64,000 nt of DNA from an uncultured Nitrososphaerota archaeon (GTDB lineage: Archaea; Thermoproteota; Nitrososphaeria; Nitrososphaerales; Gagatemarchaeaceae). Made by a program: the position numbers and the translations under genes. The notes under the pieces are model-generated. The model searched no databases. It worked only from the letters and a program-made list of their open reading frames with translations, and was not told the origin of the DNA. Where the stretch lies: positions 512,001 through 576,000 of the forward strand of contig CAWISW010000003.1 of assembly GCA_963838925.1 (NCBI GenBank). The letters are read 5' to 3'. Of the stretch, positions 2,291 to 52,786 are shown in pieces. The stretch's first letter is position 1. Every line of letters begins with the position of its first letter.

Positions 2291-2329
2291 CCGGTCGCAA
2301 TCGTAGAGACAATTGGGGAGATAACGAGA

Positions 2330-3310
2330 ATGCCGAGCAAGACCGAAGACCTCTGGTGGCTGTTCACCAGGCAGACCATCAAGGTGACCCCGAGGCAGAG
2401 CGTCCTCTCAGCATCGATGATCATGCAGAGGAGGAACTTCAGGCACCTCCCTGTCGTCGACGAGAAGGGGAGGATCATGGGGATGATCTCCGCGCAGGAC
2501 ATCATCGACTCGCTGAACTTCGCGCTCTCAAAGCCCGACGTCATGACAAAGGAGGTCTTGGAGTCCCTCGAGATCCCGGTAGAGAGGATCATGGTCTACA
2601 ACAGCATATGCGTGGAACCCGGGGACCGACTCGAAGAGATAACGAAGAAGATGACGTTCCACAACCTCGGCGGGATGCCCGTAGTTGACGAGCAGGGGGT
2701 CGTTCGGGGAATCATCACCCTGAGAGATCTCGTAGGGCTCATGGGGACGAGCTCGGACGAGATAGGAGTGCCAGTGTCCGAGGTGATGAACCCGAACGTC
2801 ATCACGATAGGGCAGGACCAGTACCTCTCTACTGCAGTCCGTCTCATGTCAGAACACCGAATCAGGCGGCTCCCCGTAGTCCCGGAGGGGAAGGGCCCAG
2901 ACGCCGCGACCCCGAAGGGGATCCTCTCCAACAAAGACGCGCTCGCGCGAATCGCGAAGTTTGCTCCCATGGGCACCCCAGGTCAGACTGGCGAAGGCGC
3001 AAGCGTCCCGACGCGCTTCGACACCCCCATCTCCGACTTTATGATCAGGGACGTGATCACAGTGAGCCAGGACGACGACATCAGGGTGGCGGCATCCAAG
3101 ATGATGATATTCGGGATCGGCGGGCTGGTGGTAGATGACTCCCCGACCGGGCGCGTGGCGCTCGTCACCGAGAGGGACCTCATCAGGACCCTCTCCCGAA
3201 AGAGGGGGAACGCGGTCTTGATGACCGCCCTCCAGTTCGAGCTGGAGGTCGAGAAGGCCAAGGCGCGCTCCACGGCCGGCTACGGCGCGAACCCGCGCTC
3301 GCGCCCCTGA
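2330..3310 (+). CDS. CBS-domain protein (four CBS repeats)
   Basis: RHLPVVD..GMIS, GGMPVVD..GIIT, RRLPVV..GILS, LVTERDL motifs. Confidence 0.85.
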   Translation: MPSKTEDLWWLFTRQTIKVTPRQSVLSASMIMQRRNFRHLPVVDEKGRIMGMISAQDIIDSLNFALSKPDVMTKEVLESLEIPVERIMVYNSICVEPGDRLEEITKKMTFHNLGGMPVVDEQGVVRGIITLRDLVGLMGTSSDEIGVPVSEVMNPNVITIGQDQYLSTAVRLMSEHRIRRLPVVPEGKGPDAATPKGILSNKDALARIAKFAPMGTPGQTGEGASVPTRFDTPISDFMIRDVITVSQDDDIRVAASKMMIFGIGGLVVDDSPTGRVALVTERDLIRTLSRKRGNAVLMTALQFELEVEKAKARSTAGYGANPRSRP

Positions 3311-3381: not shown

Positions 3382-4383
3382 ATGGGTCATAGGAAACATA
3401 GTGCACCACGCAGAGGAAGTCTCGCATACATCCCGAGAGGGAGGGTTGGAGACTTCTTCCCCACAGTGCACAACTGGCCCAAGATCAAGGCCGCCGCGCC
3501 CACGCTGCTCGGGCTTCCAGCGGTCAAGGTCAGCACGATTCACACGATTACCATTGACGACAGGGCGAAGACCCCTAACTTCGGCAAGCCCCGCTTCAAC
3601 CCCACCAGCGTCCTGGCTGTCCCGGACACCTCAGTGGTGGGGCTCCGCCTATACATCAGGGAGAACGGCGCCGAGAGAGCGGTCGGAGAGGCATACGCGA
3701 AGAGCCTCCCGAAGGGTGTCGAGAAGAAGTCCAACACCGACCCCGACAAGTTCATCGCAGCCTGGAAGCCGAAGCTCTCTGGCCTCACTCGCATCTCCGC
3801 CATCGTCGCGATAACCCCGAGAGACGCAGGGATATCGCAGAAGGTGCCGATAGTCTTCGAGGTAGGAATCGGAGGCGGCGACATCGCAGCCCAGTTCGAT
3901 TACGCAGCCAAGGTGATGGGAAAGGCCATCAAGTTCTCAGAGGTCTTCAAGGCCGGAGGCTACGTCGATATCATCGGAGTGACGAAAGGTCACGGCTACG
4001 AGGGCCCGGTCACAAGGATGGGCATCAAGAGGAAGCAGCACAAGTCGAGGAAGAGCGTCAGGGCTGTCGGAGTCATCGGCCCGTGGCACCCAGCGGCCGT
4101 CATGTACACGGTCGCGAGGGCAGGGCAGCACGGGTTCCACCAGAGGACCGAGTCTGGCAAGAGGATCCTTTCGATATCAAACGCAAAGGACGCGCCGATA
4201 ACCCCGAACGGGGGCTTCGAGCACTTCGGCGAGCTAAAAACCGACTACGCGCTGGTACGCGGGAGCGTCCCCGGCACCAACAGGCGCGTCGTAGTGGTGA
4301 GATATCCAATGAGGCCGCACCCGAAGGCCAACACGGCGCCGGTGCAGGTCCTCGAGGTCAGCACCAGGATAGCAAAGAGGTAG
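3382..4383 (+). CDS. rpl3: 50S ribosomal protein L3
   Basis: MGHRKHSAPRRGSL N-terminus; VTKGHGYEG, GPWHP, RAGQHGFHQRT motifs. Confidence 0.97.
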   Translation: MGHRKHSAPRRGSLAYIPRGRVGDFFPTVHNWPKIKAAAPTLLGLPAVKVSTIHTITIDDRAKTPNFGKPRFNPTSVLAVPDTSVVGLRLYIRENGAERAVGEAYAKSLPKGVEKKSNTDPDKFIAAWKPKLSGLTRISAIVAITPRDAGISQKVPIVFEVGIGGGDIAAQFDYAAKVMGKAIKFSEVFKAGGYVDIIGVTKGHGYEGPVTRMGIKRKQHKSRKSVRAVGVIGPWHPAAVMYTVARAGQHGFHQRTESGKRILSISNAKDAPITPNGGFEHFGELKTDYALVRGSVPGTNRRVVVVRYPMRPHPKANTAPVQVLEVSTRIAKR

Positions 4384-4389
4384 TAGCGA

Positions 4390-5205
4390 ATGGCAGGTTC
4401 TGCGAAGATACTCGACATGAGCGGCAAGCCCGGCAGTGAGATCGAGCTTCCATCAGTGTTCTCGACCCCGCTGAGGCCGGACATCGTCCAGAGGGCGTGG
4501 TGGATACTCCACTCGCACGGGATACAGCCGTACGGCCGCGACCCGATGGCGGGAAACAGGACCAGCGCCGAGACAGGCAACCCGCCCACCGGAAGAGGAA
4601 TCTCGAGAATCCCAAGGATAAAGGGCGCCGGGACCACCAAGGCAGGCCAGGCCGGAGGAGTGGCGAGCATCGTGGGAGGAAGGCTGCCTCACCCGCCCAG
4701 GTCTGAGAAGGTGATCTACCGCAAGATCAACGTCAAGGAGAGGAAGCTCGCGCTCGACACCGCGATTGCGTTCACCGGGGACGCCAACGCAGTCGCGTGG
4801 AGGGGGCACAAGACGGGGAAGCTAAAGTTCCCGATAGTAGTCTCAGACGACCTAGAGGCGCTGGAGAAGACCTCCGCCCTCGAGGCCTTCCTCAGAGACC
4901 TCGGACTCGCCGACGAGATGAAGCGCATCTACGGCGGAGTGAAGAGGCGCTCGGGGAAGCCCAGGTTGAGAGGGAGGACCACGAGGAAGAAGACCGGGCC
5001 GCTCATAGTCGTGAGCAACGACAGGGGCATAGGAAGGGCGGCCCCGTCAATCCCAGGAGTCGAGGTTTCCACGGTTGACAACCTTAGCGTCCTGCCTCTC
5101 GCGCCCGGAGGGGTCGCAGGAAGGCTCACGATCTGGACGAGCTCCGCGGTCGAGGTGCTGGGTACGAGGTCGAACAAGGGGGAGAGAATGAAAGTTGAGG
5201 CTTGA
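4390..5205 (+). CDS. rpl4: 50S ribosomal protein L4
   Basis: LPSVFSTPLRPD, QPYGRDPMAG..SAE, GRGISRIPR, LAPGG..GRLTIWT. Confidence 0.96.
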   Translation: MAGSAKILDMSGKPGSEIELPSVFSTPLRPDIVQRAWWILHSHGIQPYGRDPMAGNRTSAETGNPPTGRGISRIPRIKGAGTTKAGQAGGVASIVGGRLPHPPRSEKVIYRKINVKERKLALDTAIAFTGDANAVAWRGHKTGKLKFPIVVSDDLEALEKTSALEAFLRDLGLADEMKRIYGGVKRRSGKPRLRGRTTRKKTGPLIVVSNDRGIGRAAPSIPGVEVSTVDNLSVLPLAPGGVAGRLTIWTSSAVEVLGTRSNKGERMKVEA

Positions 5206-5461
5206 AGACGCTCAGAAGGTAATCATCCGTCCTTACATCACCGAAAGGACCTTTGACCAGATAGCGCGCGAGAACAAGCTCTGCTTCATGGTCGACAACA
5301 AGGCCTCCAAGACGCAGATTGCGAGCGCTGTCGAGGCTCTCTACGAGGTGAAGGTCAGGACTGTCAACACGCTCAGGTCGCTCGGAGGCAAGAAGGCGTT
5401 CGTGCGCCTCGTCCCAGAGGACTCAGCGACCGACCTCGCCACCAAGCTAGGGCTAGTGTAG
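5195..5461 (+). CDS. rpl23: 50S ribosomal protein L23
   Basis: PYITE, NKLCFMV, KKAFVRL, ATDLATKLG; operon position. Confidence 0.95.
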   Translation: MRLEDAQKVIIRPYITERTFDQIARENKLCFMVDNKASKTQIASAVEALYEVKVRTVNTLRSLGGKKAFVRLVPEDSATDLATKLGLV

Positions 5462-5466
5462 TAGAA

Positions 5467-6228
5467 ATGGGCAAGAGAATTCTACAGAGAAGGCGCGGCA
5501 AGGGCGGGCTCCAGTTCAGGGTCTCGCCCAGGGGTAAGATCGCACCAGTCCGGTATCCCCTCCTGGACCCAGCGGGGACGGTCCACGCGGGCAAGCTCAC
5601 GGTAAGGGCGATACTCGACGAGAAGGGGAGGAGCGCGCCCCTCGCGCAGCTGCAATACGGCGAGCACGGCGCGATATCCTACATCCCGGCCGTCAGCGGA
5701 ATATCCGTCGGGGCAGAGGTCCAACACGGCCCGGAGGCATCCATCGCCAACGGGAACATACTGCCTCTCAGGAAGATCCCAGAAGGCACCAGGATCTCGA
5801 ACATCGAGCTCCGCGCGGGCGACGGGGGGAAGCTCGTCCGTGCAGCGGGAGGCTCCGCGGTCCTCTTCTCAAAGGGCGAGGGGAGGGCGATAGTCAGGCT
5901 CCCGAGCGGGAAGAGCATGCTGATCAACGAGAACTGCAGGGCGACGGTCGGAGAGATAGCGGGAGGCGGAATGCAAGAGAAGCCGTTCATGCGCGCAGGG
6001 CCGAGGCACCACGCGATGAAGGCGAAGGGAATCCCCTACCCGAGGATGAGAGGAATCGCCATGGCAGTCGTTTACCACCCGTTCGGAGGAGGAAGGCACC
6101 AGCACCCGGGCAAGTCGACCAGCACCTCGCGCAACGCGCCGCCAGGAAGGAAGGTCGGCCTCATCGCGCCCAGGAAGACCGGAAGGAAGAGGCTGGCGAG
6201 GACGAGCGTAGAAGTTAAGGAGAAGTAG
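5467..6228 (+). CDS. rpl2: 50S ribosomal protein L2
   Basis: [55 protein letters not shown]. Confidence 0.97.
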
Positions 6229-6245
6229 GGAGAAGAGACAGGAGC

Positions 6246-6641
6246 ATGCCGAAAGAGTTCCGCTACCGGGGTTACACCGTCGAGCAGCTCAACGGGATGA
6301 GCACAGAGGCCATCCTGCAGCTCCTCCCTTCGAGGGCGAGGCGCTCCCTCAACAGGGGCATTTCAGACGACAAGAGGAAGCTCCTCGAGGACGTGCGGTC
6401 CCAGAAGGAGGGCAAGCTCGAGGGCCAGATCAAGACGCACGCGAGAGACATGATAGTCCTCCCCGTCATGGTGGGCGCCACGGTCGGCGTCTACACAGGC
6501 AAGGAGTTCCTTTCGATAGAGATCAAGCCCGACATGATAGGGCACTACCTCGGCGAGTACGCGATCACCAACAAGAAGGTCGTGCACGGGACTCCGGGCA
6601 TCGGCGCGAGCCGCTCGAGCCTCTACGTCCCGCTAAAGTAG
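6246..6641 (+). CDS. rps19: 30S ribosomal protein S19
   Basis: [38 protein letters not shown]. Confidence 0.97.
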
Positions 6642-6681
6642 CAAGACCCGGGTACGACCCGAGAAGACCGGGAGCACAACA

Positions 6682-7446
6682 TTGTCGCTCGCGAGAGGCG
6701 ATCGTTCGCTGCAGGAGGAGCTCGACTGGGCCATGGCGAGGCTGGACAAGGCAGGCTACCACGTGCGCTCGAAGGTAAGGCTTCTCGTCGACCCGAACCT
6801 CGACATCATGGGCTACGCGAACGAGGAGGACGGCGTCCAGCACATCGTCATAGCCGAGTGGGCGCTCCAGTCGGAGATGCTCGGCGGCCTCCTCTTCCAC
6901 GAGCTCGCCCACATCTACCACACCGAGAGGCGCTCGCCGTCGCACAAGTTCAAGGTCACCAACGCGATAATCACCGAGTTCACCCAGAGGGAGGGCCTCA
7001 ACGAGAGGGAGACCGGGTACCTCGTCGAGGGGTTCAACCACCTGCAGAACGTGATCGTCGACGACATCGTCTTCGCCGCCATGGAGGAGTCCGAGAGGAG
7101 GCAGGCCCAGAGGTTCTTCTCGGGGTGGCTCACGGAGGCACCCTCGGGCTACGCCCTCGTCGACGCCGCCGCCCTCTCGAGGAACGCGTTCGCCATGGCG
7201 TCCCTGAAGAGGCACGGCATGCTGAACGAGGAGGAGCCCAGCGCAAAGGAGATGGCCGCGAGGGGCCGGGCGCTCGTCAGGCAGCTCGGCGAGAAAACCC
7301 AGGAGAAGTACGACGCGATAGAGGAGTTCCTCGTCAAGGCGGAGGCTGGCTGGAACGAGGAGACTTTCCACAACAAGCTAGTCCAGTACCTCGACCTCCT
7401 CGTGGCCCTTCTCAGGGAGAAGGACCAGATGGAAGACCTAAGGTAG
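6682..7446 (+). CDS. Hypothetical HExxH (zincin-like) protein, DUF5781-like
   Basis: HELAHIY..E..PSH motif; host-like codon usage. Confidence 0.6.
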   Translation: MSLARGDRSLQEELDWAMARLDKAGYHVRSKVRLLVDPNLDIMGYANEEDGVQHIVIAEWALQSEMLGGLLFHELAHIYHTERRSPSHKFKVTNAIITEFTQREGLNERETGYLVEGFNHLQNVIVDDIVFAAMEESERRQAQRFFSGWLTEAPSGYALVDAAALSRNAFAMASLKRHGMLNEEEPSAKEMAARGRALVRQLGEKTQEKYDAIEEFLVKAEAGWNEETFHNKLVQYLDLLVALLREKDQMEDLR

Positions 7447-7487
7447 AAACAAGATAAAGCCCGGCCCGTCGCTGGAGGCGACCATCC

Positions 7488-7952
7488 ATGTCGCTGAAGA
7501 TCGGGACCCTGAGCATCGGAAGCAAGGCCTTCGAGCAGCACGGCAAGATCCCGCGGCAATACTCCGCGGACGGCGGAAACAAGTCGCCCCCGCTCACGTG
7601 GGACGGAGTCCCTCAAGGGACCAGACAGCTGGCGCTGGTCTGCCACGACCCAGACGCACCCATGCCAAACGGATTCACGCACTGGGTCCTCTACGGAATC
7701 CCTCCTGACGCGAAGGGCATCCCTGAGGGCGGGGGCAGCAGCTTCGTCCAGGGGCGCAACGGCATGGGCAAGCAAGGCTACTTCGGACCCGCGCCTCCTC
7801 CGGGGCACGGGGTGCACCACTACTACTTCTGGCTCTACGCGCTCGGCGAAGGCCCAGAACTGGAGCCGGACCTGAGCCGCGAAGAGCTCTTGGAAGCCAT
7901 CGCCGGTCGGGTCCTCGCCCAGGCACGGCTTGTCGGGGTCTACGAGCGCTAG
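7488..7952 (+). CDS. YbhB/YbcL family (PEBP, Raf kinase inhibitor-like) protein
   Basis: SPPLTW, DPDAP, FTHWV, GPAPPPGHGVHHYYF. Confidence 0.9.
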   Translation: MSLKIGTLSIGSKAFEQHGKIPRQYSADGGNKSPPLTWDGVPQGTRQLALVCHDPDAPMPNGFTHWVLYGIPPDAKGIPEGGGSSFVQGRNGMGKQGYFGPAPPPGHGVHHYYFWLYALGEGPELEPDLSREELLEAIAGRVLAQARLVGVYER

Positions 7953-7991
7953 GCCCGCCGGCTCCAAAGGCGCCCGGCTTCAGCTAGTTTA

Positions 7992-9116
7992 TTGGACGGC
8001 GCTCCCCCCGGAGCTAGTTTGCCGCAGAAGAACAGGCTGGAGCGGATCTTCGAGAACGCCCGCGAGGGTCTCGACGCCGTATGCATCGTCAACGGGAGCC
8101 ACCCCGACCCGAACTTCTTCTACGTCTCCGGCTACAGGAGCGGCCTCTTCGAGGGCAACATGCTCTTCTTGTTCCCCGACATGCACGTCGAGGTGCTCAC
8201 CAACCCCCTCGAAGAGGAGGCCGCGAGGCAGAGGCGCGACTACACCATCCACGTCGAGAAGGCCTACACCCCTTCAGGACGCCGGCAGGCGGTGTCCTCC
8301 ATCCTCAAGGGATGCAAGCGCGTCGGCATCAACTTCCAGGGCGTCTCGCACAAGGACTTCTTGGGGCTCCAAGCGACGCTCTCCTCGAAGAAGCTCGTCG
8401 ACGTGTCCGACGCCCTGATGGAGGCGAGGCTTGTGAAGGACCCGGACGAGCTCGAGGCGCTCTCGGGGGCCGCGAGGATCATCTCGAAGGTGGTCGACGA
8501 AGTGCCCGGGCTCTTGAAGGCTGGGATGACCGAGAAGGCGCTCAAGGCCGAGATAGACTACGCGATGGTCAAGGAGGGAGCGGACTCCCCCTCGTTCGAG
8601 AGCATCGTCGCCTTTGGGGAGAACTCAGCGATCCCCCACTACTCTGCGGGAGCGAGGCGCCTCAGCAAGGGAGACAACGTCCTCGTCGACGTGGGCGCGC
8701 GGTACCGCCTCTACTGCTCCGACATCACCAGGACGTTCTTCTTCGGCCGCGCCTCCCCGTCGCAGAGGGAGGTCTACTCCAAGGTCCTCGAGGCGCAGAC
8801 GAAGGCGTTGGAGGGGGTCAGAGAGGGCGTCAGCGGCAGGGCGGTCCACCAGATAGCGGCAAGGGTGATCGACGGGAGCAAGTTCAAGGGGAGATTCACC
8901 CACGGCCTCGGCCACTCCCTGGGCCTGGAGGTCCACGACGGCGTCGGGCTGACCCTGCGGAATACGCGCAAGCTGGCGCGTAACATGGTCTTGACGGTCG
9001 AGCCGGGGATATACCTCCCAGGGAAGGGAGGCGTCCGTATCGAGGACGACGTCGTGGTCACCAAGGATTCCTGCAGGCCGCTGACGACATCACCGAAGGC
9101 CCTTCTCGAGGTTTAG
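7992..9116 (+). CDS. Xaa-Pro peptidase (M24 family)
   Basis: DVGARY..YCSDITRT, HGLGHSLGLEVHD, TVEPGIY, GVRIEDD; exact start uncertain. Confidence 0.9.
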   Translation: MDGAPPGASLPQKNRLERIFENAREGLDAVCIVNGSHPDPNFFYVSGYRSGLFEGNMLFLFPDMHVEVLTNPLEEEAARQRRDYTIHVEKAYTPSGRRQAVSSILKGCKRVGINFQGVSHKDFLGLQATLSSKKLVDVSDALMEARLVKDPDELEALSGAARIISKVVDEVPGLLKAGMTEKALKAEIDYAMVKEGADSPSFESIVAFGENSAIPHYSAGARRLSKGDNVLVDVGARYRLYCSDITRTFFFGRASPSQREVYSKVLEAQTKALEGVREGVSGRAVHQIAARVIDGSKFKGRFTHGLGHSLGLEVHDGVGLTLRNTRKLARNMVLTVEPGIYLPGKGGVRIEDDVVVTKDSCRPLTTSPKALLEV

Positions 9117-43898: not shown

Positions 43899-44642
43899 CT
43901 ACGCTTCCTTCCATCTGGCGTTCCTGGAGACCACCACCAAGAGCACGACGGTGAGGCCGGCAAGGATCGCCCAGTCGATTATCACGCTGGCCTCGCTCAC
44001 CTGCAGGAACCCGGCCGCGTTCTGCATGATCTCGGCCGCGTAGGTGGTCGGAGAGAAGTACGCGAGGTACCTGAACGGGAGCGGGATGTATGTGATGGGA
44101 TAGTAGACGGGCGTTATCGCAGTGAATATCGTCGTGAGGAGCCTCGACCACGCGAAGCTCTGGACGATGTCGCTGGAGAGGGTGGCGAACATGAACCCGA
44201 TGGTGATCGACGTGAGGAACATGAGCAGGAGCGCAGCGGTGAGCTCGAGGGCTTGCACCAGGCCGGGGTGGATGTATATCGCCCCGAGCGCCACCAGTAT
44301 CGCCAGGGCCGGAAGGTTGTAGATTATCTCCGAGGCCGCCATCCCGACCACGTACGCCGCCGGCGAGGCGGGCGAGCTGACGAGCATGTCCTGGAGCTTG
44401 AAGTCGTTCTTCAGGTGGGAGATGTCCCCCTGGAGCGACATCCCGCTCTGGAACATGCTCATGATCAGGCCCCCCTCTATCGCCTGGCCGATCAGCGCTC
44501 CCCTGCTGACGAAGTCTATGACGATCAGGAAGGAGAGGGGGGAGAGCACCGTGTTGACCAGGTTGATCGGGTAATTCTTCATCTCGTAGACGGAGTTGAC
44601 CAGGATCGCCGCGACCAGCTGGCTCGAGAGGCTCCTCTTCAT
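43899..44642 (-). CDS. ABC-2 type permease
   Basis: Six TM helices, PVYYPITYIP..SPTTYAA; coupled to ATPase. Confidence 0.8.
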   Translation of the reverse strand: MKRSLSSQLVAAILVNSVYEMKNYPINLVNTVLSPLSFLIVIDFVSRGALIGQAIEGGLIMSMFQSGMSLQGDISHLKNDFKLQDMLVSSPASPAAYVVGMAASEIIYNLPALAILVALGAIYIHPGLVQALELTAALLLMFLTSITIGFMFATLSSDIVQSFAWSRLLTTIFTAITPVYYPITYIPLPFRYLAYFSPTTYAAEIMQNAAGFLQVSEASVIIDWAILAGLTVVLLVVVSRNARWKEA

Positions 44643-45589
44643 GCATGCCAGCCTCCGTCGTTCGAGGCGGCCTCTTGCTCTGCCTGCGTCGACTCCCCCA
44701 CGAGCTGGAAGAATATGTCGTCGAGCGAGACCGGCCCGATCGAGAACTTGGACCCGGCGACCGAGAGCTTCTTCGATATCGCGAAGGCCTCGTCCTCGTT
44801 CGTAAGGATCTGGACCTCGCCGTTCCGGCCGGTCGTGACCTCGCCATGCGAGACGCCGGGCACTAGGGAGTTTGCGGGGAGCTTGACGCTGTATTGGTAC
44901 CTGATCCTGCCGCGGATCGCCGGAACCGACCCGACCGCGACGAGGCGCCCCTCGCCGAGTATCCCCAGGGTGTCCGCGAGCTGCTCGGCCTCCTCAAGGT
45001 AGTGCGTCGTGAGGAAGATGAATCGGTCCTTGGCGAGCTCGCGAAGTATCTCCCAAAAGTCCTTCCTCGAGATGGGGTCGAGGCCCGTCGTCGGCTCGTC
45101 CAGGAATATGATGTCGGCCTCCGAGGCGAGCACCATTGCCGCCAGAGCCTTCCGCTTCGTCCCTCCTGACAGCCTGCGGTTGAGCGTGTCCGCGACCTTG
45201 TCCAGCTTCAGCCTGGCGAGCGACTCTTCGGCCCTCTTCTTGGCCTCCGAGTACTCGAAGCCCCTCCACATCAGATACGTGAGCGTGGCCTGCTTCGGCG
45301 TCATCCACGAAATCGTTCTCGCCTCTTGGGGGACGATGGCTATCCTCTCGCGGAGCCTCTTGTCCTCTTTGACGACGTCTATGCCGTTTATCGAGGCGCT
45401 CCCCGACGTTGGAGCCAGCTCCGTCGCGAGGATCCTGACGAGGGTCGTCTTCCCCGCCCCGTTCCTCCCGATGAGCGCGAAGATCCCTGACGAGGGGGCG
45501 GAAAGGGTCACGTCCTGGAGGGCGAACGTCGCCCCTCCGTACTTCTTGGATAGGCCCTTCGTGATGAGCTGGTCCATTCCTCTCCTCAA
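44639..45589 (-). CDS. ABC transporter ATP-binding protein
   Basis: GRNGAGKTT, LSGG, FLDEPT, TTHY. Confidence 0.9.
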   Translation of the reverse strand: MRRGMDQLITKGLSKKYGGATFALQDVTLSAPSSGIFALIGRNGAGKTTLVRILATELAPTSGSASINGIDVVKEDKRLRERIAIVPQEARTISWMTPKQATLTYLMWRGFEYSEAKKRAEESLARLKLDKVADTLNRRLSGGTKRKALAAMVLASEADIIFLDEPTTGLDPISRKDFWEILRELAKDRFIFLTTHYLEEAEQLADTLGILGEGRLVAVGSVPAIRGRIRYQYSVKLPANSLVPGVSHGEVTTGRNGEVQILTNEDEAFAISKKLSVAGSKFSIGPVSLDDIFFQLVGESTQAEQEAASNDGGWHA

Positions 45590-45784
45590 TCTCTCTGCAG
45601 TTCGCTCGCGCCGCGGGCTCTATTTAATGGAATCACGAGGCGGCCTCTTGTCTCGGGGCTCCGGAGCGCCTGACGGGGGCGCACTTTAGTAAGGGAGCCG
45701 CCCTGAGGCAGAGAGGCGCCGAGTAAACTGGATGGGATTCGAGCCGGCAAGTACATCTTCCGTGCGGCGTACCTCGTCGTCTCT

Positions 45785-46213
45785 TTGTTCATCCTGCTCG
45801 TCCTCGCCGCCCCCATATTGGGCGCGATCACCCCTCAGGTCTCCGCGCAAAACGAATACGGCTTGGGGGTAAACCTCCAGACCGTCCAACCCCAATTGCA
45901 ACAGGTCTTCTCCTCGGCTTCCAGTCAGTCCGGCCTTTCCTCCGTGCTCACAGTCCCCGCGTTCAACAACTGGTTCCTCTCAGGGAGCGTCACGCTCTCG
46001 CTCAGCCTCGGCGTGAACGGGACCACCCTTTACCAGAGCCCGAAGGCCACCGAGAGCCTGGCGCCCTTCCATTCCGGGGTCGTCAGCCTGCCCATCGACA
46101 TCCCTGCCAGCACGCTACAACAGATGTCTGGCCAGCAGATTAGCGGAGGAGGGCAGATGACAATTCAGGAGGCGGGCTTGTGGACGATCACGGTGAATCT
46201 GGGGCAAGGTTGA
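45785..46213 (+). CDS. Hypothetical membrane-anchored/secreted protein
   Basis: Hydrophobic N-terminus then beta-rich domain; start may lie further upstream. Confidence 0.55.
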   Translation: MFILLVLAAPILGAITPQVSAQNEYGLGVNLQTVQPQLQQVFSSASSQSGLSSVLTVPAFNNWFLSGSVTLSLSLGVNGTTLYQSPKATESLAPFHSGVVSLPIDIPASTLQQMSGQQISGGGQMTIQEAGLWTITVNLGQG

Positions 46214-46220
46214 TCTGACT

Positions 46221-46694
46221 TTGGTGAAAATCCTCAAGGGAGTCGCGTCTGCCGCAGTCAACTTCGTCGGCGTGGGCATAGTGGCCCCGTTCGCCGTGAC
46301 CTATCTCTCTCCGCTGATTTCGAAGTACATCGCGCTCCCTCCGTCCTTCGAGATATGGGAGGTCCTCCTCCTCTTCGGCGCGGTCTTCGCTGTCACCGGC
46401 TTTCTCCAGAGCGGATACTCGAAGGGGGACTTCCCATGGCTGTTCGGAAAGATCGGGGGCGGCTTGGCGGGCATCGGCTTCTTCTACTACCTCTTCCTCC
46501 AGCTGCCGAGCTCGGTCGGGTCCGCGGGGGGCGTCGAGAGCTCGGGGCTCTTACTCCTCGTAGGCCTTGCCATCGCTCTCTCCTACGGATACATGGGCTT
46601 CGACTTTTGGGACGCCAGGCGAAAGAACAACGCGACGAAGGCAGGGAGGAGCGGCATGGCCGGCGCGACCCCACCGGCCCCGAGCGGCAACTGA
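46221..46694 (+). CDS. Hypothetical membrane protein
   Basis: Four hydrophobic segments; host codon usage. Confidence 0.65.
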   Translation: MVKILKGVASAAVNFVGVGIVAPFAVTYLSPLISKYIALPPSFEIWEVLLLFGAVFAVTGFLQSGYSKGDFPWLFGKIGGGLAGIGFFYYLFLQLPSSVGSAGGVESSGLLLLVGLAIALSYGYMGFDFWDARRKNNATKAGRSGMAGATPPAPSGN

Positions 46695-46699
46695 GGATT

Positions 46700-46825
46700 C
46701 TACTTCTTCGTCAGCCCGTCGAGGATTTCCTTGGCCCTGTCCATCCTGATCTTCTTCTCTGCGACCAATTGGTCGGCTATCTGGTCGACCATCTTCCCCG
46801 TGGCTCCCACGGACGCTGCGATGTT
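46700..46825 (-). pseudogene. Stranded original 3' end of hmgA (41 codons plus TAG)
   Basis: NIAASVGATGKMVDQIADQLVAEKKIRMDRAKEILDGLTKK*, 24/41 identical to the C-terminus of the hmgA ORF; preceded by in-frame TGA. Confidence 0.9.
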
Positions 46826-48081
46826 TCAAGTGTTGGCGCTTATCAACCTCAGGCGGATTCTTCGGCGTGACCGGCGCCCAGCTTTCGATTGACCGCATGA
46901 TTGATCTCTACGTCAATCAAGGTCGGTCGCTTCACGCAATTTCACGCGAGTTTGGACTCCAAAGGAGAACAATAGCAAGAAATCTAAGGAAGAACGGAGT
47001 GAGACTAAGATCCTACGAAGAATCAATCGATCTTCTGAGAAGAGTCCGTCAAGCCGAAGTTGAGAAGATTAGAACAATGTATTCGGTGGACAAGCTGAGT
47101 TCATTGAAGATTGGCCGTAGGTTGGGGATTAGCGGTTCATGGGTGAGGCAAGTTATGGACAGGTCTGGTATCCCTAGGAGGACTGTTTCGCAGGCATGCA
47201 TGCGATTCACTAAGGTTGGTTTTTCAGGCGATGAACACGAAAGGGCCTACTTGATGGGTCTACGGGCAGGCGACCTAAATTCTGCTGTCTATGGAAACCA
47301 AGTCAGAGTAGCTACCTCGACGACTCATCCGGCAATGTGGCGGCTATTGGTTTCGGCATTCGGAAAGAACGGTCGAGTCAACAAGACGGCTGCGAGGAGC
47401 AAACACGGTTTCGGGTGGTTGACCTATGCATATCTCGACAGAAGCTTCGACTTCTTGCTTTCTAAGACTGTTAGTATCCCTAAGGTTTTCCTAGAAAGAG
47501 AGGATTTGTTCCTTAGCTTTCTAGCTGGATACGTTGACGCCGAGGGCTCGTTCAGAGTATATCTCAATTCGACTCACAAGGCGATGTCATTTCGTATCAA
47601 CTCAGAGGACAGACTTCTTCTAAAGGACATTCGTGACGGGCTTCGAAAAATGGGATACCATGTGTATTGGGCGCTCGCAGCAAAACGAGGATTAAACAAC
47701 GGGAAGAGATATCGCCGAAGCCTATGGTCTCTCGGAATGTTTCGTGAATCCGAAATCATTGACCTGATTCAAAAATTGCCGATTCGGCATGACGAGAAGA
47801 CAAGACAAGTACGGCTGCTGTCTTGGAGCGTAAGAAGGAGTTGGGACATCGTAGAGCCTCGGGCAATTGCACTCAGATCTTCAATAAAGAATGAAGTATC
47901 AAGATTCGTGGGAGAAGCCAAGAAAGTCTATCTCTCGAAGCATTCATTGGCTGGATGATTTCTTCGATAACTCAGCAAACAATTCCTTCGCCCTGTCAAA
48001 TCTGATTTTCCTCTCCTCAATCATTATATCCGCTATCTTGTCCACGAGCTTCCCCTCCGCGCCTGTGTTCGCTGCAAGGTT
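46826..48081. mobile_element. Free-standing homing-endonuclease element carrying a replacement hmgA 3' end
   Basis: Low-GC block between two versions of the hmgA C-terminus; contains a LAGLIDADG gene. Confidence 0.82.
46867..47958 (+). CDS. LAGLIDADG homing endonuclease with two N-terminal HTH repeats
   Basis: AYLMGLRAGD and FLAGYVDAEG motifs; LY....SL..I...G HTH repeats; AT-rich codons. Confidence 0.88.
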   Translation: MTGAQLSIDRMIDLYVNQGRSLHAISREFGLQRRTIARNLRKNGVRLRSYEESIDLLRRVRQAEVEKIRTMYSVDKLSSLKIGRRLGISGSWVRQVMDRSGIPRRTVSQACMRFTKVGFSGDEHERAYLMGLRAGDLNSAVYGNQVRVATSTTHPAMWRLLVSAFGKNGRVNKTAARSKHGFGWLTYAYLDRSFDFLLSKTVSIPKVFLEREDLFLSFLAGYVDAEGSFRVYLNSTHKAMSFRINSEDRLLLKDIRDGLRKMGYHVYWALAAKRGLNNGKRYRRSLWSLGMFRESEIIDLIQKLPIRHDEKTRQVRLLSWSVRRSWDIVEPRAIALRSSIKNEVSRFVGEAKKVYLSKHSLAG

Positions 48082-49224
48082 CCGCGCGTGGAGCTTCATG
48101 TGCCCCCTCTGGATGCCCTCGGAGGCCAGGGCCCTCAGGGCGGCGAAGTTCTGCGCCAGGCCCACCGCCCCCATGACCTCTGCGAGCTCGATTGCCGTCT
48201 TTATCCCAAGTATCTTCACGTTGACCTTCGCTGCGGGGTGCACCTTCGCCGCGCCTCCCACAAGGCCCACGGCCATCGGCATCTCCAGCGTCCCGAACAG
48301 GTCTCCGTCCTTATTCACCTTCCAGATGGTGAGCGGCTTGTAGGCGCCCGAGCGGGCGGCGTAGCTGTGCGCGCCCGCCTCCAGAGCCCTCCAGTCCTGC
48401 CCGCAGGCGAGCGCGACCGCGCTGACCCCGTTCATGATCCCCTTGTTGTGGGTCGCGCATCGGTACGGGTCGGCGTCGGCAAAGGCGTATGCGAAGAGGA
48501 TGCCCTCGACGACCTCCTCGCCCCCGAGCGCCTCCTTGTCGAAGACCGCGGTCGCCTTCACCAGCCTCCTGTCTGCCAGGTTCGAGATTATCCTGAGGTA
48601 GACCTTCCCCCCGCTGATCGTCTCGACCAGGGGAGCCACCGCCTCGGCCATCGTGTTCACGGCGTTCGCCCCCATCGCGTCGCCGCAGTTGACGAACAGC
48701 TCTACTATCACCATCGGCCCCTTGAGCGTCTCGATGACCTTCACGTTGAGGTCCTTCGCCCCTCCGCCCAGAGACACCAGCATCGGGTCCTGCTCGTTGG
48801 CCTTCGCGAGCAGCGCCTTCTTCTTGGCCATCAGCTTCTTCGCCGCCTTTCGCGGGTCGCGGACTCCCACCGTCTGAATCTGCCCTATCATGATCGGGCC
48901 AGTGTTGGTGACCTTGAACCCGCCCTTGACCCTGGCGATCTTCGCGGCGTTGCTCGCGGCCGCCACCACCGACGGCTCTTCGATGGCCATGGGAACGATG
49001 TAGTCCTTGCCGTTGACCAGGAAGTTCGTCGCCATCCCGAGCGGGAGGGTCATCCCGCCCACGACGTTCTCGATCATCCTGTTCGCGACGTCGCCGGGCA
49101 GCCCTCCCGTGTTGGCGAGGACCTTGACCTCCTCATCGCTCAGCCCTGCGAGCTTCTGCAGGAGCTTGAGCCTGTCCTCCACGCTCAGCTTGTAGAACCC
49201 CGGAATCTCGGATCCTCCCTGCAT
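47944..49224 (-). CDS. hmgA: HMG-CoA reductase (class II/degradative-type family)
   Basis: ENVVG, PMAIEEPSVVAA, DAMGAN, THNKGIMNG, GIQRGHMKLH. Confidence 0.95.
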   Translation of the reverse strand: MQGGSEIPGFYKLSVEDRLKLLQKLAGLSDEEVKVLANTGGLPGDVANRMIENVVGGMTLPLGMATNFLVNGKDYIVPMAIEEPSVVAAASNAAKIARVKGGFKVTNTGPIMIGQIQTVGVRDPRKAAKKLMAKKKALLAKANEQDPMLVSLGGGAKDLNVKVIETLKGPMVIVELFVNCGDAMGANAVNTMAEAVAPLVETISGGKVYLRIISNLADRRLVKATAVFDKEALGGEEVVEGILFAYAFADADPYRCATHNKGIMNGVSAVALACGQDWRALEAGAHSYAARSGAYKPLTIWKVNKDGDLFGTLEMPMAVGLVGGAAKVHPAAKVNVKILGIKTAIELAEVMGAVGLAQNFAALRALASEGIQRGHMKLHARNLAANTGAEGKLVDKIADIMIEERKIRFDRAKELFAELSKKSSSQ

Positions 49225-49290
49225 CTGTGCTCTAGGGCCGCTTCCCGGCCGACCATGTATTAAGTCTGAGAACCCGAATCTGTCGGCGGG

Positions 49291-50223
49291 TCAGGACGTC
49301 TGGGAGTCGGCCTGGCGCTGGGAAGGGCCCGGCTTGCCCACTATCCCGCGCGACGACAGCTCCCTCAGGATGGCCTTCAGGTCCTGCCCCCTCCCCACGG
49401 CGCTCCTCAGCATTGACACCGCCTCCTTGGTCTCGCCCTGCCGCATCATCCCCAGGGCGAGCCTGAGCTTCAGCTCCGAGCTGTCAGGAGCGAGGGAGAT
49501 CGCCTTCGAGAACTCCCTCGTTCCCCTCTCTAGGTCTCCCCTCGCGAGCAGCTCCTCGCCCGTCTCGGCGTGGGAGTATGCCTCCTGCACCTTGAGCATC
49601 CCCCTTAGCTCCCTCAGGGGCGCGTCGCAGTCCTCCACGCGGAGGTCCAGCAGCCTCCCCTCCCATGGCGTGTTGGTGGGGACTGCGGACACGACCGTCA
49701 CAGCAGCAGACCTGGGGCCGCCCCCCCTCCTGGCTCCCCTCGATGCCTGCTCTCCCGCCTCAAGTGCGGCGACCATCCTCTCCGCCAGCGGCCCCTTCGA
49801 GCTCCGGAACGCGGCCGCCGTCGACCTCCAGACCCTCTTCGCGCCCACGAAGCTGGCCTGGACGCAGAACCCCCTGCCCGCGACGAACCCCGACTCCGGC
49901 ATGCTGCTCTTGCCCGTGTGCGCCGCGGCGCGGCCCCTCGAGTCGATCACCATCACCTGCCTCACGGCCGGGCGCGGGTCCGTCGCGAGGAGGGACTTCA
50001 GCGCCTGGGGCGGGGTCTTCCCTCCCTTCAAGAGGGCCAGCCCGAGCGGACCGTAGGTCGGCTCGACCGTGCCTTGCGCGACCACTACGCCGACTCCAGG
50101 CTCGGCCCAGAGCGTCTTCGGGCCGACCGAGAACGACTGTGAGACGACGGCAGCGCCAATCTCCCCCGACCTCCTGTCGGCCGCGACGATTGACAGGGTT
50201 CCGCCGAGAGGCATCGGGACCAT
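49291..50223 (-). CDS. DUF1028 (Ntn-hydrolase-like) protein with C-terminal TPR
   Basis: TLSIVA.D, AEPGVG, RQV, AAHTG, DLRVED; TPR-like tail; start inferred. Confidence 0.8.
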   Translation of the reverse strand: MVPMPLGGTLSIVAADRRSGEIGAAVVSQSFSVGPKTLWAEPGVGVVVAQGTVEPTYGPLGLALLKGGKTPPQALKSLLATDPRPAVRQVMVIDSRGRAAAHTGKSSMPESGFVAGRGFCVQASFVGAKRVWRSTAAAFRSSKGPLAERMVAALEAGEQASRGARRGGGPRSAAVTVVSAVPTNTPWEGRLLDLRVEDCDAPLRELRGMLKVQEAYSHAETGEELLARGDLERGTREFSKAISLAPDSSELKLRLALGMMRQGETKEAVSMLRSAVGRGQDLKAILRELSSRGIVGKPGPSQRQADSQTS

Positions 50224-50311
50224 CGACAAGTCGGCTCGAACACCGAATAAAAGCACTCGCTCCGGCTTCAAGTAAGAATAAAAACCGCTGTTTGCCGGCT
50301 GGCAATTCGGC

Positions 50312-50409
50312 GGGCCGGTCGTCTAGTCTGGTCAGGACGCCGCTCTGACACGGCGGATACGCGAAAAGCGTCGCTAAGGTCGAGAGTTCAATTCTCTCCC
50401 GGCCCACCA
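50312..50409 (+). tRNA. tRNA-Val(GAC) with variable-loop intron at 44/45 (50358-50377), CCA encoded
   Basis: GGGCCGG/CCGGCCC; CCGCT-CT-GAC-AC-GGCGG; BHB GGCG/CGCT with GA^T and AA^G bulges. Confidence 0.92.
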
Positions 50410-50465
50410 CCCTCTCCCTTGCTTCCGCGATTACGTTTTAACGCTCAGGCGCCGGACCTCCCTCG

Positions 50466-51854
50466 TTGGACAAAGTAGGCATCCTGGTCGTCTCCAAGTC
50501 GCTGAGCTCAGCGGCAATCATCGACACCTTCGCGAGGAGCGAGAGGTACTCCACGGAGTTCTACGTCGCCGAGAAGCAGGTCAACCCGCGCAACTTCAGC
50601 CGTGCCAAGGTCCACAAGGTGGTCCCCGACCTCGACGTGGGCGAGGTCGCGAAGTTCGCGCGCAAGCACAGGAATGAGCTCGCCTTCGGCCTGACGGACA
50701 CCGAGGACTTCGTCACGGCCGGGGGGAGGGACGTCGTGGAGAAGGAGTCCGGGGTCCCCATGCTGTGCGTGACGAAGGAGTTCGCGGTCGAGGCGAGCAA
50801 GGCAGACCAGCGTCTCCTCTTCGAGCGGATATGCCCCGAGGCCAATCCCCGCTACAGGGTCTTCGACCCGAAGAAGTACAAGGGCGACGCGGCCGCCGTC
50901 GCCGACCTGCGCGACCTCTCGAGGGAGCTCACCGACGGGTTCGTGATTAAGCCAGACGCTCCCGCTAGGGGGGCGGGCGTGGGCGTCTGGGGGAAGGACT
51001 TCATGACCGAGGACGAAGCAGTCGAGTTCTTCCTGAACGTCTACTCGAAGGGAAGGGTCGTCGTCGAGGAGCGAATCGAGGGGGAAGAGTCGAGCTTCCA
51101 CGCCTTCAGCGACGGGCGCCACTTCGTCCCCGCTCCCCTGACACGCGACTACAAGCGAGCACTTGACGGGGACAAGGGGAAGCTCACCGGCGGGATGGGG
51201 AGCTACCGCGGCCCCAAGATGGTCCTGCCCTTCCTGCCACCATCCGAGTGGGAGCGGGTCGTCCGCATGGAGCGGGACGCCTTCGAACGCTGGAAGGGAA
51301 GGGGCTCGAACCCGGGCCTCCGCGGGATCGTCCTCTACGACGCGCTCATGCACACCCGCGGGGGGTTCAAGATCCTCGAGAGAAACAGCAGGGGAGGGAA
51401 CACCGAGCAGATCTGCATCCTGACGACGATGCTCGACGACTATGTCGACGTGTGCTACCGCATGATCGACGGCAGCCTCAAGGGTATCAGGTTCTCCAAC
51501 AAGGCCTCGGTGGTGACCTGCGCCGTCCCTCCCGGATACGGTGGGGCCCCCTCCAAGGGAGTCGGGCAGCCGACGGTAGACCTGGGACGAGCCTACGCGC
51601 TCGAGAAGCGCGGCGGCGACCTTCGGGTATTCCCGATGGACCTCAAGCTGGACGAGGCTGGAGAGAGGGCCCTCGTCGGGACCTCCCGGTCGGTGGCGGT
51701 CGCGGGGATCGCGCCGTCGCTCGAAGACGCGCACGACACCTCTCTCCTGGGAGTGAGGGCGCTAGGGAGCGGGTTCCGACACAGGGACGACGTAGGCAGC
51801 GCAGCCGACGTCGCGAGGAGCAGGGAGCACCTCCAGAGCATCAGGAGCGCGTGA
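50466..51854 (+). CDS. Phosphoribosylamine--glycine ligase-like ATP-grasp protein (divergent)
   Basis: VEASKA, VIKPD, VEERIEGEE, DYKRALDGD.G..TGGMGSY; N-terminal GGREHA motif missing. Confidence 0.75.
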   Translation: MDKVGILVVSKSLSSAAIIDTFARSERYSTEFYVAEKQVNPRNFSRAKVHKVVPDLDVGEVAKFARKHRNELAFGLTDTEDFVTAGGRDVVEKESGVPMLCVTKEFAVEASKADQRLLFERICPEANPRYRVFDPKKYKGDAAAVADLRDLSRELTDGFVIKPDAPARGAGVGVWGKDFMTEDEAVEFFLNVYSKGRVVVEERIEGEESSFHAFSDGRHFVPAPLTRDYKRALDGDKGKLTGGMGSYRGPKMVLPFLPPSEWERVVRMERDAFERWKGRGSNPGLRGIVLYDALMHTRGGFKILERNSRGGNTEQICILTTMLDDYVDVCYRMIDGSLKGIRFSNKASVVTCAVPPGYGGAPSKGVGQPTVDLGRAYALEKRGGDLRVFPMDLKLDEAGERALVGTSRSVAVAGIAPSLEDAHDTSLLGVRALGSGFRHRDDVGSAADVARSREHLQSIRSA

Positions 51855-51868
51855 GGAGCTTCCCCGGC

Positions 51869-52786
51869 CTACTGCACGTAGACGCCCATCTGCTGGCCTA
51901 TCTTCCTCAGGCGCTCGACCCTGTGCTGCATGGACGGGTGCGTCGAGAAGAGCTCCAGCATCGAGCTGCCCCTGAAAGGGTTCACAATCCAGAGCGACGC
52001 GGTAGCGGGCGAGGGGGCCCCGGCCTGACCCTGCCCGCCAGAGGACATGCCCCTCGTCTGGACCCTCGAGCTGATCTTCTGGAGCGCGGAGGCCAGGGCG
52101 CCGGGATTCTGAGTCAGCTTCGCGCCGTACTCGTCAGCGTTGTACTCCAGGCCGCGGGATATCCCGAGCTGGACGAACGTGGCGCCGAGTGGCACGAGTA
52201 TCACCGCCATGAGCAGCGCGAGGGGGTTCCCGTTCTGCCTGTTGTTCCCGCTGCCACCGAACATCATCGAGAACATCGCGATGTTTCCGACGTAGGAGAT
52301 CACACCCGCCATCGTCGCTGCGACGCTCGACGTGAGGACGTCCCTGTGCACGACGTGGCCGATCTCGTGCCCTATCACCGCCTCGAGCTCGGTCGGAGTG
52401 AGGGTCTGGAGTATGCTCGAGGTCGCGACGACCACCGCCTTGCTTGGCCCTCTCCCCGTGGCGAAAGCGTTGGGCTGCTGCGAGCTGACTATCCCAACCC
52501 TCGGCATCGGGATCTGGGCCTTCTGGGCGACGCTCTGGACGGCCGCGAAAAGCGTCGGGTTGTCGCTCTGCTGGATTATCCTGGCCCTGCTCATCTTCAC
52601 CACTATCGTGTCGCTCCAGTAGTACGAGACGAAGTTCACTACGCCCGCGAGCACTAGCCCTAGAAGCATGAAGGCGAGCGGGTCCCCGAAGTAGAGCCCG
52701 ATGGCGTACCCTACCAGCATCAACAGTCCGGTCAGGACGAAGAAGAGCGCCGCCATGCGTGTGTATAATCCCATGAACCTTGGCAC
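51869..52786 (-). CDS. htpX: Zinc metalloprotease HtpX
   Basis: PNAFATGR, HEIGH, EYNAD, LFSTHP. Confidence 0.92.
   Translation of the reverse strand: MPRFMGLYTRMAALFFVLTGLLMLVGYAIGLYFGDPLAFMLLGLVLAGVVNFVSYYWSDTIVVKMSRARIIQQSDNPTLFAAVQSVAQKAQIPMPRVGIVSSQQPNAFATGRGPSKAVVVATSSILQTLTPTELEAVIGHEIGHVVHRDVLTSSVAATMAGVISYVGNIAMFSMMFGGSGNNRQNGNPLALLMAVILVPLGATFVQLGISRGLEYNADEYGAKLTQNPGALASALQKISSRVQTRGMSSGGQGQAGAPSPATASLWIVNPFRGSSMLELFSTHPSMQHRVERLRKIGQQMGVYVQ

Follow-up and report, generated by a model that had tools for sequence, protein, structure and literature searches.

The free-standing endonucleases SegF, SegG and MobE of T-even phages home without an intron, the sequence of flanking genes being co-converted. 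According to the available text of a 2026 preprint, homing endonuclease genes of the free-standing kind generally occur at intergenic sites only (PMC13405050), a confinement that stems from their inability to splice out of a gene. The closest described systems are found in fungal mitochondria, in which endonuclease ORFs travel with a foreign, in-frame gene C-terminus and thereby create hybrid genes, the native C-terminus being left downstream. The available part of that report lists atp6 of Allomyces macrogynus (cited there as its reference 48), atp6, atp9, cox2 and nad3 of Glomus sp., atp9 of Rhizopus and cox2 of Mortierella (PMC3630166). In Glomus, the native C-terminus is described as differing from that of a relative by synonymous changes only and as absent from the mRNA, which was read there as the sign of a recent insertion (PMC3630166). 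Here we describe a comparable locus in a 64,000-nucleotide stretch (hereafter the window) of contig CAWISW010000003.1 from an uncultured Nitrososphaerota archaeon, where an endonuclease ORF lies inside a protein gene, the HMG-CoA reductase gene hmgA, without recognisable intron or intein. We read this locus as an intronless homing cassette of about 1.25 kb which would have entered hmgA, an essential gene present in one copy, inside its 3' end while bringing a rescue piece of its own, a reading to which we assign a probability of roughly 0.7.

Two ends for one hmgA gene

The genome (1.84 Mb) contains a single hmgA, the sole other match in a genome search being a stranded copy of its 3' end. Right after ...GHMKLHAR, the hmgA product continues into a 45-residue tail, NLAANTGAEG...KKSSSQ, hereafter the in-use tail. 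The stranded tail lies ~1.25 kb downstream of it and is preceded by an in-frame TGA (46826-46828). The two tails align without gaps with 24 of 41 residues identical (58.5% over 41 by tblastn), and tblastx matches the left flank of the endonuclease gene to its right flank with an E-value of 6.6e-13. Five nucleotides separate the stop codon of the stranded tail from that of the convergent gene at 46221..46694. The ~16 bases upstream of the Asn codon of the stranded tail (46826-46841) are what is left, in degenerate form and with 1 nt inserted, of the K-L-H-A-R codons, as deduced from a codon-register alignment with 17 relatives and the metagenome contig L066, and from a blastn alignment to the relative G008 that reaches 46841. 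This two-tail anatomy, with the stranded tail at 46700-46825 behind its TGA and a 15-nt overlap between the endonuclease gene and the in-use tail, had been described in a first-pass annotation made from the sequence alone, and all of it is indeed found there.

Composition separates the two tails. GC content is ~0.62-0.68 outside the insert and ~0.44-0.52 within about 46850-48050. The GC content at third codon positions (GC3) is 0.91 in the hmgA body, 0.85 in the stranded tail and 0.62 in the in-use tail, in agreement with the hand counts of the first-pass annotation (35/41 for the stranded and 26/41 for the in-use tail). L066, a contig of a related species, exhibits the same pattern, with 0.83 in the body, 0.76 in the stranded tail and 0.42 in the in-use tail. 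The in-use tail is thus compositionally foreign to the body that it completes in both species. The endonuclease gene and the in-use tail form one interlocked unit, and the in-use tail belongs to the inserted cassette.

Since the genome is metagenome-derived and the same runs also contain related strains, the tails of two strains might have been misjoined during assembly. We consider such a chimera negligible: error-free Logan contigs of run X1, which is the best DNA match to the window and may be its own source sample, span both junctions with 0 differences (46576-46882, 47880-48031 and 48013-48457), and the separate contig L066 has the same arrangement at 81% nucleotide identity. The runs holding window DNA are soil and sediment metagenomes.

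Known kinds of intervening sequence were also considered. An intein was rejected because the endonuclease ORF is antisense to hmgA and yields 0 Hint or intein Pfam matches. Group I, group II and bulge-helix-bulge introns were rejected on the grounds of the antisense gene, of the lack of any Rfam intron family and of junction pairing at shuffle level. A scan of 46400-48400 with Rfam at E<=10, which covers known kinds only, returned two chance-level matches and 0 intron families. RNA duplex and cofold predictions for the two junctions reached -36.5 kcal/mol, against -33.7 +/- 4.7 kcal/mol for 200 shuffles, and hence lend no support to a bulge-helix-bulge motif. The insert thus matches its initial description as an antisense, free-standing gene devoid of intron or intein signature.

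Relatives document the locus without its cassette. hmgA was present in 37 of the 40 related genomes searched, and none of the 29 relatives' loci examined carries the endonuclease or a second tail. In nine syntenic relatives (G020, G006, G019, G014, G017, G018, G008, G009 and G022), all of them empty, hmgA directly abuts the same convergent neighbour, which also neighbours hmgA in L066, and 0 of 22 other genomes of the genus yielded an endonuclease match at E<=1e-40. The working tail of G009 reads ...HAR-NIAASAG... and is identical to the stranded tail at 37 of 40 residues (92.5% of amino acids, 85% of nucleotides). The alignment with G009 starts at the final base of the Arg codon and continues unbroken across the tail, its stop and the intergenic DNA into the neighbour gene. 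Because of this collinearity, the stranded tail appears to be native and in place, and the in-use tail most likely came with the endonuclease, as first proposed. In three congeners, hmgA is found in two frames or with internal stops (G009:C3:1364738-1366004, G021:C4 and G022:C10), which may be assembly indels or real breaks.

The opposite polarity deserves consideration, as most members of the endonuclease family appear to sit between genes: the in-use tail would be native, and an ordinary intergenic free-standing endonuclease with a co-converted flank, that is, a hitch-hiking tail fragment of a donor hmgA, would have been inserted past the hmgA stop. The in-use tail is indeed about as similar to the tails of several members of the clade (over 38 aa, P0070 87%, P0074 84%, P0076 79% and G008 76%) as the window body is to their bodies (81-86%), and G009, the nearest match of the stranded tail, is more distant in its hmgA body. 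Such a scenario would leave unexplained that the in-use tail has the composition of the cassette and the stranded tail that of the host in both species, that the stop of the endonuclease lies inside the in-use tail in either of them, and that the stranded tail is collinear with its G009 counterpart down to the neighbour gene and so was not imported. We therefore find it quite unlikely.

The tails of hmgA are a mosaic. Three unrelated types (SLAMSAGAKG, NLAANTGA.G and NIAASVGATG, the last, that of the stranded tail, hereafter B-type) occur among relatives whose bodies are 81-91% identical (L007-L013, L030 and L035; P0070-P0076). Tails 74-87% identical to the in-use type were found in P0070, P0074, P0075, P0076 and G008. 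The G020 group, nearest to the window in its hmgA body (85-90% of amino acids), carries the third type, SLAMSAGAKG..., 45-60% identical to either window tail. The DNA downstream of hmgA in the window (orf142) is closer to that of G009 than to that of G020, whereas the body is closer to that of G020. Such a patchwork would result if the cassette were lost on one side of the duplication or on the other. The first-pass annotation had predicted an empty allele reading HAR-NIAASVG: relatives without the insert do exist and G009 comes close to this reading, whereas the relatives nearest in the body depart from it with their third tail.

Age of the cassette and constraint on the stranded tail

L066 is collinear with positions 44002-51940 of the window (8 kb) at 80.7% nucleotide identity. 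It harbours the endonuclease at the same place (80% of amino acids identical) together with both tails, and its junction is the same down to the 1-nt insertion. Its endonuclease gene and in-use tail overlap by 12 nt, and its remnant reads ...N-A-R-N, without a stop. The cassette of L066 is bordered by a perfect 19-nt direct repeat, ACGCTCGAAATCTTGCAGC. Together with a nonsense codon in its endonuclease gene (see below), this repeat would fit a copy entering a phase of decay or loss, for which the repeat would offer a precise route.

Nei-Gojobori estimates between the window and L066 (Table 1) give the endonuclease a synonymous divergence (dS) of 0.76, comparable to the 0.63-0.75 of host genes, and a ratio of non-synonymous to synonymous divergence (dN/dS) of 0.149. 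On these comparisons, the endonuclease appears to be under purifying selection and to have diverged for as long as host genes. Identities of the endonuclease and of hmgA drop in parallel over three lineages (80/91% and 74/81%). The third of these is a candidate defined by endonuclease P0002 (74% identical) and hmgA P0071, which has the same tail type; each is reported from a contig of 243350 nt, and together they probably represent a third occupied lineage, known from proteins alone. The cassette thus seems to have been tied to its host lineage since before the two species split. Because the endonuclease dS matches that of host genes and the stranded tail has not drifted, the insertion is apparently not simply recent. 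The first-pass annotation had taken the intactness of the stranded copy to suggest a recent insertion; this part of its homing interpretation, which is otherwise largely supported, is not borne out, considering that a contig at ~19% nucleotide divergence shares the junction, that endonuclease dS is 0.76, as in host genes, and that differences in the tail are almost all synonymous.

The stranded tails of the window and L066 differ by 15 synonymous and 4 non-synonymous substitutions. When 19 random substitutions were placed in the stranded tail, 0 of 20,000 trials gave three or fewer amino-acid changes under three transition biases, and 36-44% of trials gained a stop. A binomial test of neutrality gave P 2e-7. 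A neutral relic was rejected on the basis of these simulations, of the binomial test and of a dN/dS of 0.043, which leaves no room for a fixed relic devoid of function. The stranded tail owes its intactness not to youth but to the fact that nearly all of its differences are synonymous.

This constraint agrees either with a homing cycle that has long been running in the presence of empty alleles or with a function that the tail has kept. The cycle offers the most economical account: cassette-free alleles with a working B-type tail would persist and be re-invaded. In such a cycle of re-invasion, the endonuclease would be kept active by selection and the tail behind it would always be recently stranded. 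A contig from run X2 (depth 7.8 compared with about 3) bears a third variant of the B-type tail, which matches window positions 46703-46823 with nine listed differences, all synonymous by codon register; the contig diverges downstream of 46703 and may represent the working tail of a related population.

Purifying selection on the stranded tail could also mean that it is still used. The insertion would then be ancient, fixed and vertically inherited, the downstream tail serving the cell either because some unrecognised splicing or processing removes the insert from part of the hmgA transcripts or because the tail is expressed on its own; HMG-CoA reductase would then exist with either of two C-termini, and the cell would have domesticated the endonuclease or would simply tolerate it. 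The dN/dS of the stranded tail, which at a dS of about 1.0 is as low as that of the in-use tail, speaks for such a use, as do the equal dS of endonuclease and host, the parallel identities over three lineages and the junction common to both species with its 1-nt insertion. Moreover, cassette-free joints were found in none of the Logan contigs (depth ~2-5) of four DNA runs from one study, contigs of a kind that drops rare variants. Yet the in-use tail is in frame and itself under purifying selection, the insert carries an antisense gene that is interrupted by many stops when read in the hmgA frame, the stranded tail of the window comes immediately after an in-frame TGA and a remnant that is out of frame, and neither intron families nor junction pairing above shuffles were detected at the thresholds given above. 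In the available text of PMC3630166, fungal mobile ORFs show the same synonymous-only native C-terminus, absent from mRNA. On balance, we judge continued use of the stranded tail unlikely.

The endonuclease, its relatives and the proposed homing cycle

The inserted gene encodes a monomeric, double-motif LAGLIDADG enzyme with two N-terminal helix-turn-helix (HTH) modules and a long C-terminal helix, in line with the HTH-HTH-double-LAGLIDADG architecture given in the first-pass annotation. Its start codon is ambiguous (GTG at 46867 or ATG at 46897). HTH_23/HTH_38 matches lie above the Pfam cut-off at residues 11-43 and a Sigma70_r4-like match at residues 72-99. The LAGLIDADG helices read YLMGLRAGD(136) and FLAGYVDAE(226)G. 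Residues G135, D136, D224, E226 and G227 are invariant in the five paralogues of the genome itself; among 27 homologues G135, D136, G221 and D224 are invariant and G227 is kept in 90% or more. Close homologues P0003 and P0004 bear PF14528 in a precomputed table, and phmmer against PDB sequences retrieves LAGLIDADG enzymes (4efj, E 1e-4). The AF2 model (pLDDT 91.7) displays two domains over residues 123-303 in alpha-beta-beta-alpha-beta-beta-alpha order. Foldseek matched 148 PDB chains at E<=0.001, and the best 50 of these 148 are all LAGLIDADG enzymes, maturases or inteins, headed by I-AniI, the bI3 maturase, I-DmoI and I-Tsp061I (E 1e-9 to 1e-7), with I-OnuI variants also among the best matches. 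The 43 pattern matches to the endonuclease in the genome contigs included 0 relatives.

In the mechanism that we propose, cassette-free hmgA would be cleaved by the endonuclease within, or immediately behind, the conserved stretch coding for GHMKLHAR-N. The break would be repaired off an occupied allele by way of the hmgA body to one side and, to the other, the native tail together with the downstream gene, and repair would copy the cassette into hmgA. The imported tail would at once preserve the function of the enzyme and interrupt the target, the native tail remaining downstream, untranslated. Cassette-free alleles whose working tail is of the stranded type would persist in populations and then be re-invaded, resulting in a cycle of gain and loss. 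The duplication begins in the K-L-H-A-R codons, within the GHMKLHAR segment, which is invariant as protein and nearly so as DNA in 17 relatives. In class-II reductases, this motif contains the catalytic histidine, and the tail makes up the larger part of the C-terminal flap.

Of the first 11 bases behind the Arg codon, only 2 differ between the two tails, which diverge strongly beyond. With so few differences in these 11 bases, immunity of the occupied allele would require a recognition site that reaches further downstream. A recoded, cleavage-resistant tail, as suggested in the first-pass annotation, is plausible only on this condition, and the 21-nt site reconstructed there may not extend far enough in the 3' direction to give a fair assay.

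Replacement pieces accompany other members of the endonuclease family. A survey of 200 other genomes of the order found homologues at E<=1e-10 chiefly in the host's family (24 of 40 genomes), and in 3 of 13 genomes of one other family. Thirty loci (29 distinct, L057 and L058 being counted as one) were inspected for flank duplications, and hmgA plus two further distinct cases were positive; a search for duplicated gene ends beside homologues had been suggested as a check in the first-pass annotation. In G121 and G128, which are 99.94% identical at the locus and are counted as one case, a 2.5-kb, AT-richer cassette holds the endonuclease and a complete tyrS (GC3 0.58-0.59 compared with about 0.8 in host genes). 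Two-thirds of the native tyrS, from the N-terminal side, have given way to this cassette; the remaining C-terminal fragment starts at the KMSKS loop and is 85% identical to the TyrRS of a congener and 42% to that of the cassette. In G078, from another family, a stranded 5' piece of a DUF255/thioredoxin-like gene is followed by the endonuclease and the full gene; the piece has an in-frame stop and ends right after the CxxC motif, and the two copies are 78% identical. In G136 (L062) and G104 (L063), a homologous endonuclease lies just upstream of the same DUF255 gene, with no stranded piece detectable. Replacement pieces thus recur in this endonuclease family but are not its rule. A drop in GC3 at gene ends beside endonuclease genes, sought at 33 loci, was clear at the hmgA loci only and is hence no general signature.

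Other loci of the family have features of their own. A conserved-site subgroup (L005, L037-L043, L046 and L047) is convergent to a gene of ~145-155 aa, which in L005 resembles a ferredoxin (C-x2-C-x2-C-x3-CP). Among the paralogues of the genome itself, that of L002 (G000:C2:216039-219917) ends 15 nt inside a same-strand tRNA-Gln(UUG) gene (2398-2471), and no duplicated tRNA piece was found upstream of it. The paralogue of L003 (G000:C3:414203-417901) is N-terminally truncated (259 aa, no HTH); downstream of it, at about 1330-1420, lie a tRNA-like T-arm, acceptor 3' strand and CCA that neither ARAGORN nor the Rfam tRNA model calls.

Several points weigh against a homing cassette, in addition to the constraint on the stranded tail and to the lack of cassette-free joints. 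Cleavage, the target site, homing and the cycle are what we infer from the observed anatomy, composition, empty alleles of relatives, second occupied species, selection signatures, fold and parallel cassettes. The Pfam LAGLIDADG_3 match, at 21.2 bits, is slightly below its cut-off of 22.5. The L066 endonuclease gene (3748-4836) has a premature stop at codon 317, beyond which the frame continues. Given the 2 differences in 11 bases and the 19-nt repeat of L066, it is not obvious why the occupied allele should be immune, unless the target continues further downstream. Flank duplication was not found in 26 of the 29 distinct loci, and at four of the five own-genome paralogue loci (all except that of hmgA) no comparable flank match was seen. 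The third tail type in the nearest relatives implies a history more complex than one insertion into a B-type gene.

Some of these points would suit an endonuclease that is dead or an unrelated passenger, the tail having been duplicated by illegitimate recombination with foreign DNA at a locus never mobile by homing: the inferred status of cleavage, the nonsense codon of L066 and the sub-threshold Pfam match. This is very improbable in view of the selection acting on the endonuclease (dN/dS 0.149 over a dS of 0.76) and of the conserved catalytic Asp/Glu positions. Furthermore, beside homologous endonucleases the breaks in three different genes coincide exactly with conserved catalytic motifs, a pattern expected from endonuclease targeting and not from random recombination.

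If the homing reading is extended to the whole family, a single HTH-LAGLIDADG family of soil Nitrososphaeria might act as a natural drive that cuts and replaces essential genes, swapping the ends of core enzymes between species time and again through occupied/empty cycling and one-sided loss. The piece supplied would be the 3' end in the case of hmgA, the 5' end in that of DUF255 and the entire gene in that of tyrS, the break always falling at a catalytic motif, and the three hmgA tail types could be footprints of such swaps. We put forward each part of this extension tentatively, as a possibility that is less likely than its contrary.

Table 1. Features of the hmgA locus and of the tyrS and DUF255 cassettes. 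Positions are those of the window, except for L070 and L060; dS and dN/dS are Nei-Gojobori estimates for the window against L066.
Feature	Position	Strand or length	GC3	dS	dN/dS	Remarks
hmgA, whole ORF	47944..49224	minus				426 aa; class-II HMG-CoA reductase, Pfam HMG-CoA_red PF00368 E 1.8e-111
hmgA body, codons 1-381, end ...EGIQRGHMKLHAR	48082..49224	minus	0.91	0.63	0.081	
In-use tail (putative replacement), 45 codons NLAANTGAEG...KKSSSQ + TGA	47944..48081	minus	0.62	1.09	0.044	in frame with body
Endonuclease ORF, 363 aa	46867..47958	plus		0.757	0.149	free-standing, antisense to hmgA
Overlap of convergent 3' ends, endonuclease gene and in-use hmgA tail	47944..47958	15 nt				from ORF coordinates
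Junction spacer	46826..46866	minus				K-L-H-A-R remnant, then endonuclease leader/promoter region
Stranded, apparently native tail, 41 codons NIAASVGATG...LTKK + TAG	46700..46825	minus	0.85	about 1.0	0.043	probable ancestral position
Convergent membrane-protein gene, 157 aa	46221..46694	plus				probable ancestral downstream neighbour of hmgA
Neighbour genes				0.65-1.47	0.06-0.22	
tyrS locus L070 (G121:C22:137000-150000; also L071, G128)	5444-8542					endonuclease 5948-7057, complete tyrS 7085-8227
Native tyrS remnant in L070	5444-5878	opposite strand				C-terminal 144 codons from KMSKS loop
DUF255 cassette L060 (G078:C6)	1172-2589					

The upstream neighbour of hmgA (window 49291-50271) encodes a DUF1028 protein fused to TPR repeats and is conserved across the genus.

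Comparison with known systems

A literature search, with most subscription journals outside its coverage, returned no such arrangement in an archaeal or bacterial chromosome and no endonuclease in an HMG-CoA reductase gene. New here are the second occupied species, the almost synonymous-only divergence of the stranded tail and the cassettes of the same family that carry replacement pieces of tyrS or DUF255. If our reading is correct, archaeal core genes would be open to invasion without introns or inteins, and a selfish element could exchange the catalytic ends of essential enzymes between species. The stranded tail would provide both a built-in clock and a test for the persistence of empty alleles.

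The hmgA cassette is best read as an archaeal chromosomal variant of the fungal mitochondrial mobile ORFs. Judged by its sequence organisation, it appears to share the structural features of that class as given in the available text of PMC3630166: a free-standing endonuclease, an imported in-frame terminus and a native terminus left downstream that resembles those of relatives. It differs from the cases described there in its host, an archaeal chromosome and an essential lipid-pathway gene instead of organelle respiratory genes, and in the orientation of its endonuclease, which is convergent (antisense) and overlaps the new stop, whereas the fungal ones lie downstream in phase. Compared with the same cases, its endonuclease has two HTH modules, its arrangement is common to species separated by a dS of about 0.7, and related endonucleases are in addition accompanied by a 5' replacement piece or by a complete replacement gene.

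Other systems share single aspects of this organisation. Like the endonucleases of T-even phages, the hmgA cassette would home without intron or intein; the phage genes lie between genes, have no duplicated or stranded gene end and belong to other families (GIY-YIG, HNH). The LAGLIDADG enzymes of archaeal introns and inteins (I-DmoI, I-Tsp061I and PI-type enzymes; Foldseek matches 2vs8, 2dch and 1ef0) have the same fold and double-motif architecture. Unlike these, the hmgA endonuclease resides in no rRNA or tRNA intron and in no intein, and the integrity of its host gene would be maintained by replacement at the DNA level instead of splicing. Synthetic Cleave-and-Rescue drives, as presented in the available text of PMC6442612, follow a shared logic, namely a nuclease directed against an essential gene and tightly linked to an uncleavable version of it. 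The hmgA case would be a natural, prokaryotic counterpart to this design, located at the target locus itself and with a gene end as its only rescue; the tyrS cassette of G121, which carries a whole gene, would be the closer parallel to the drives described there (PMC6442612).

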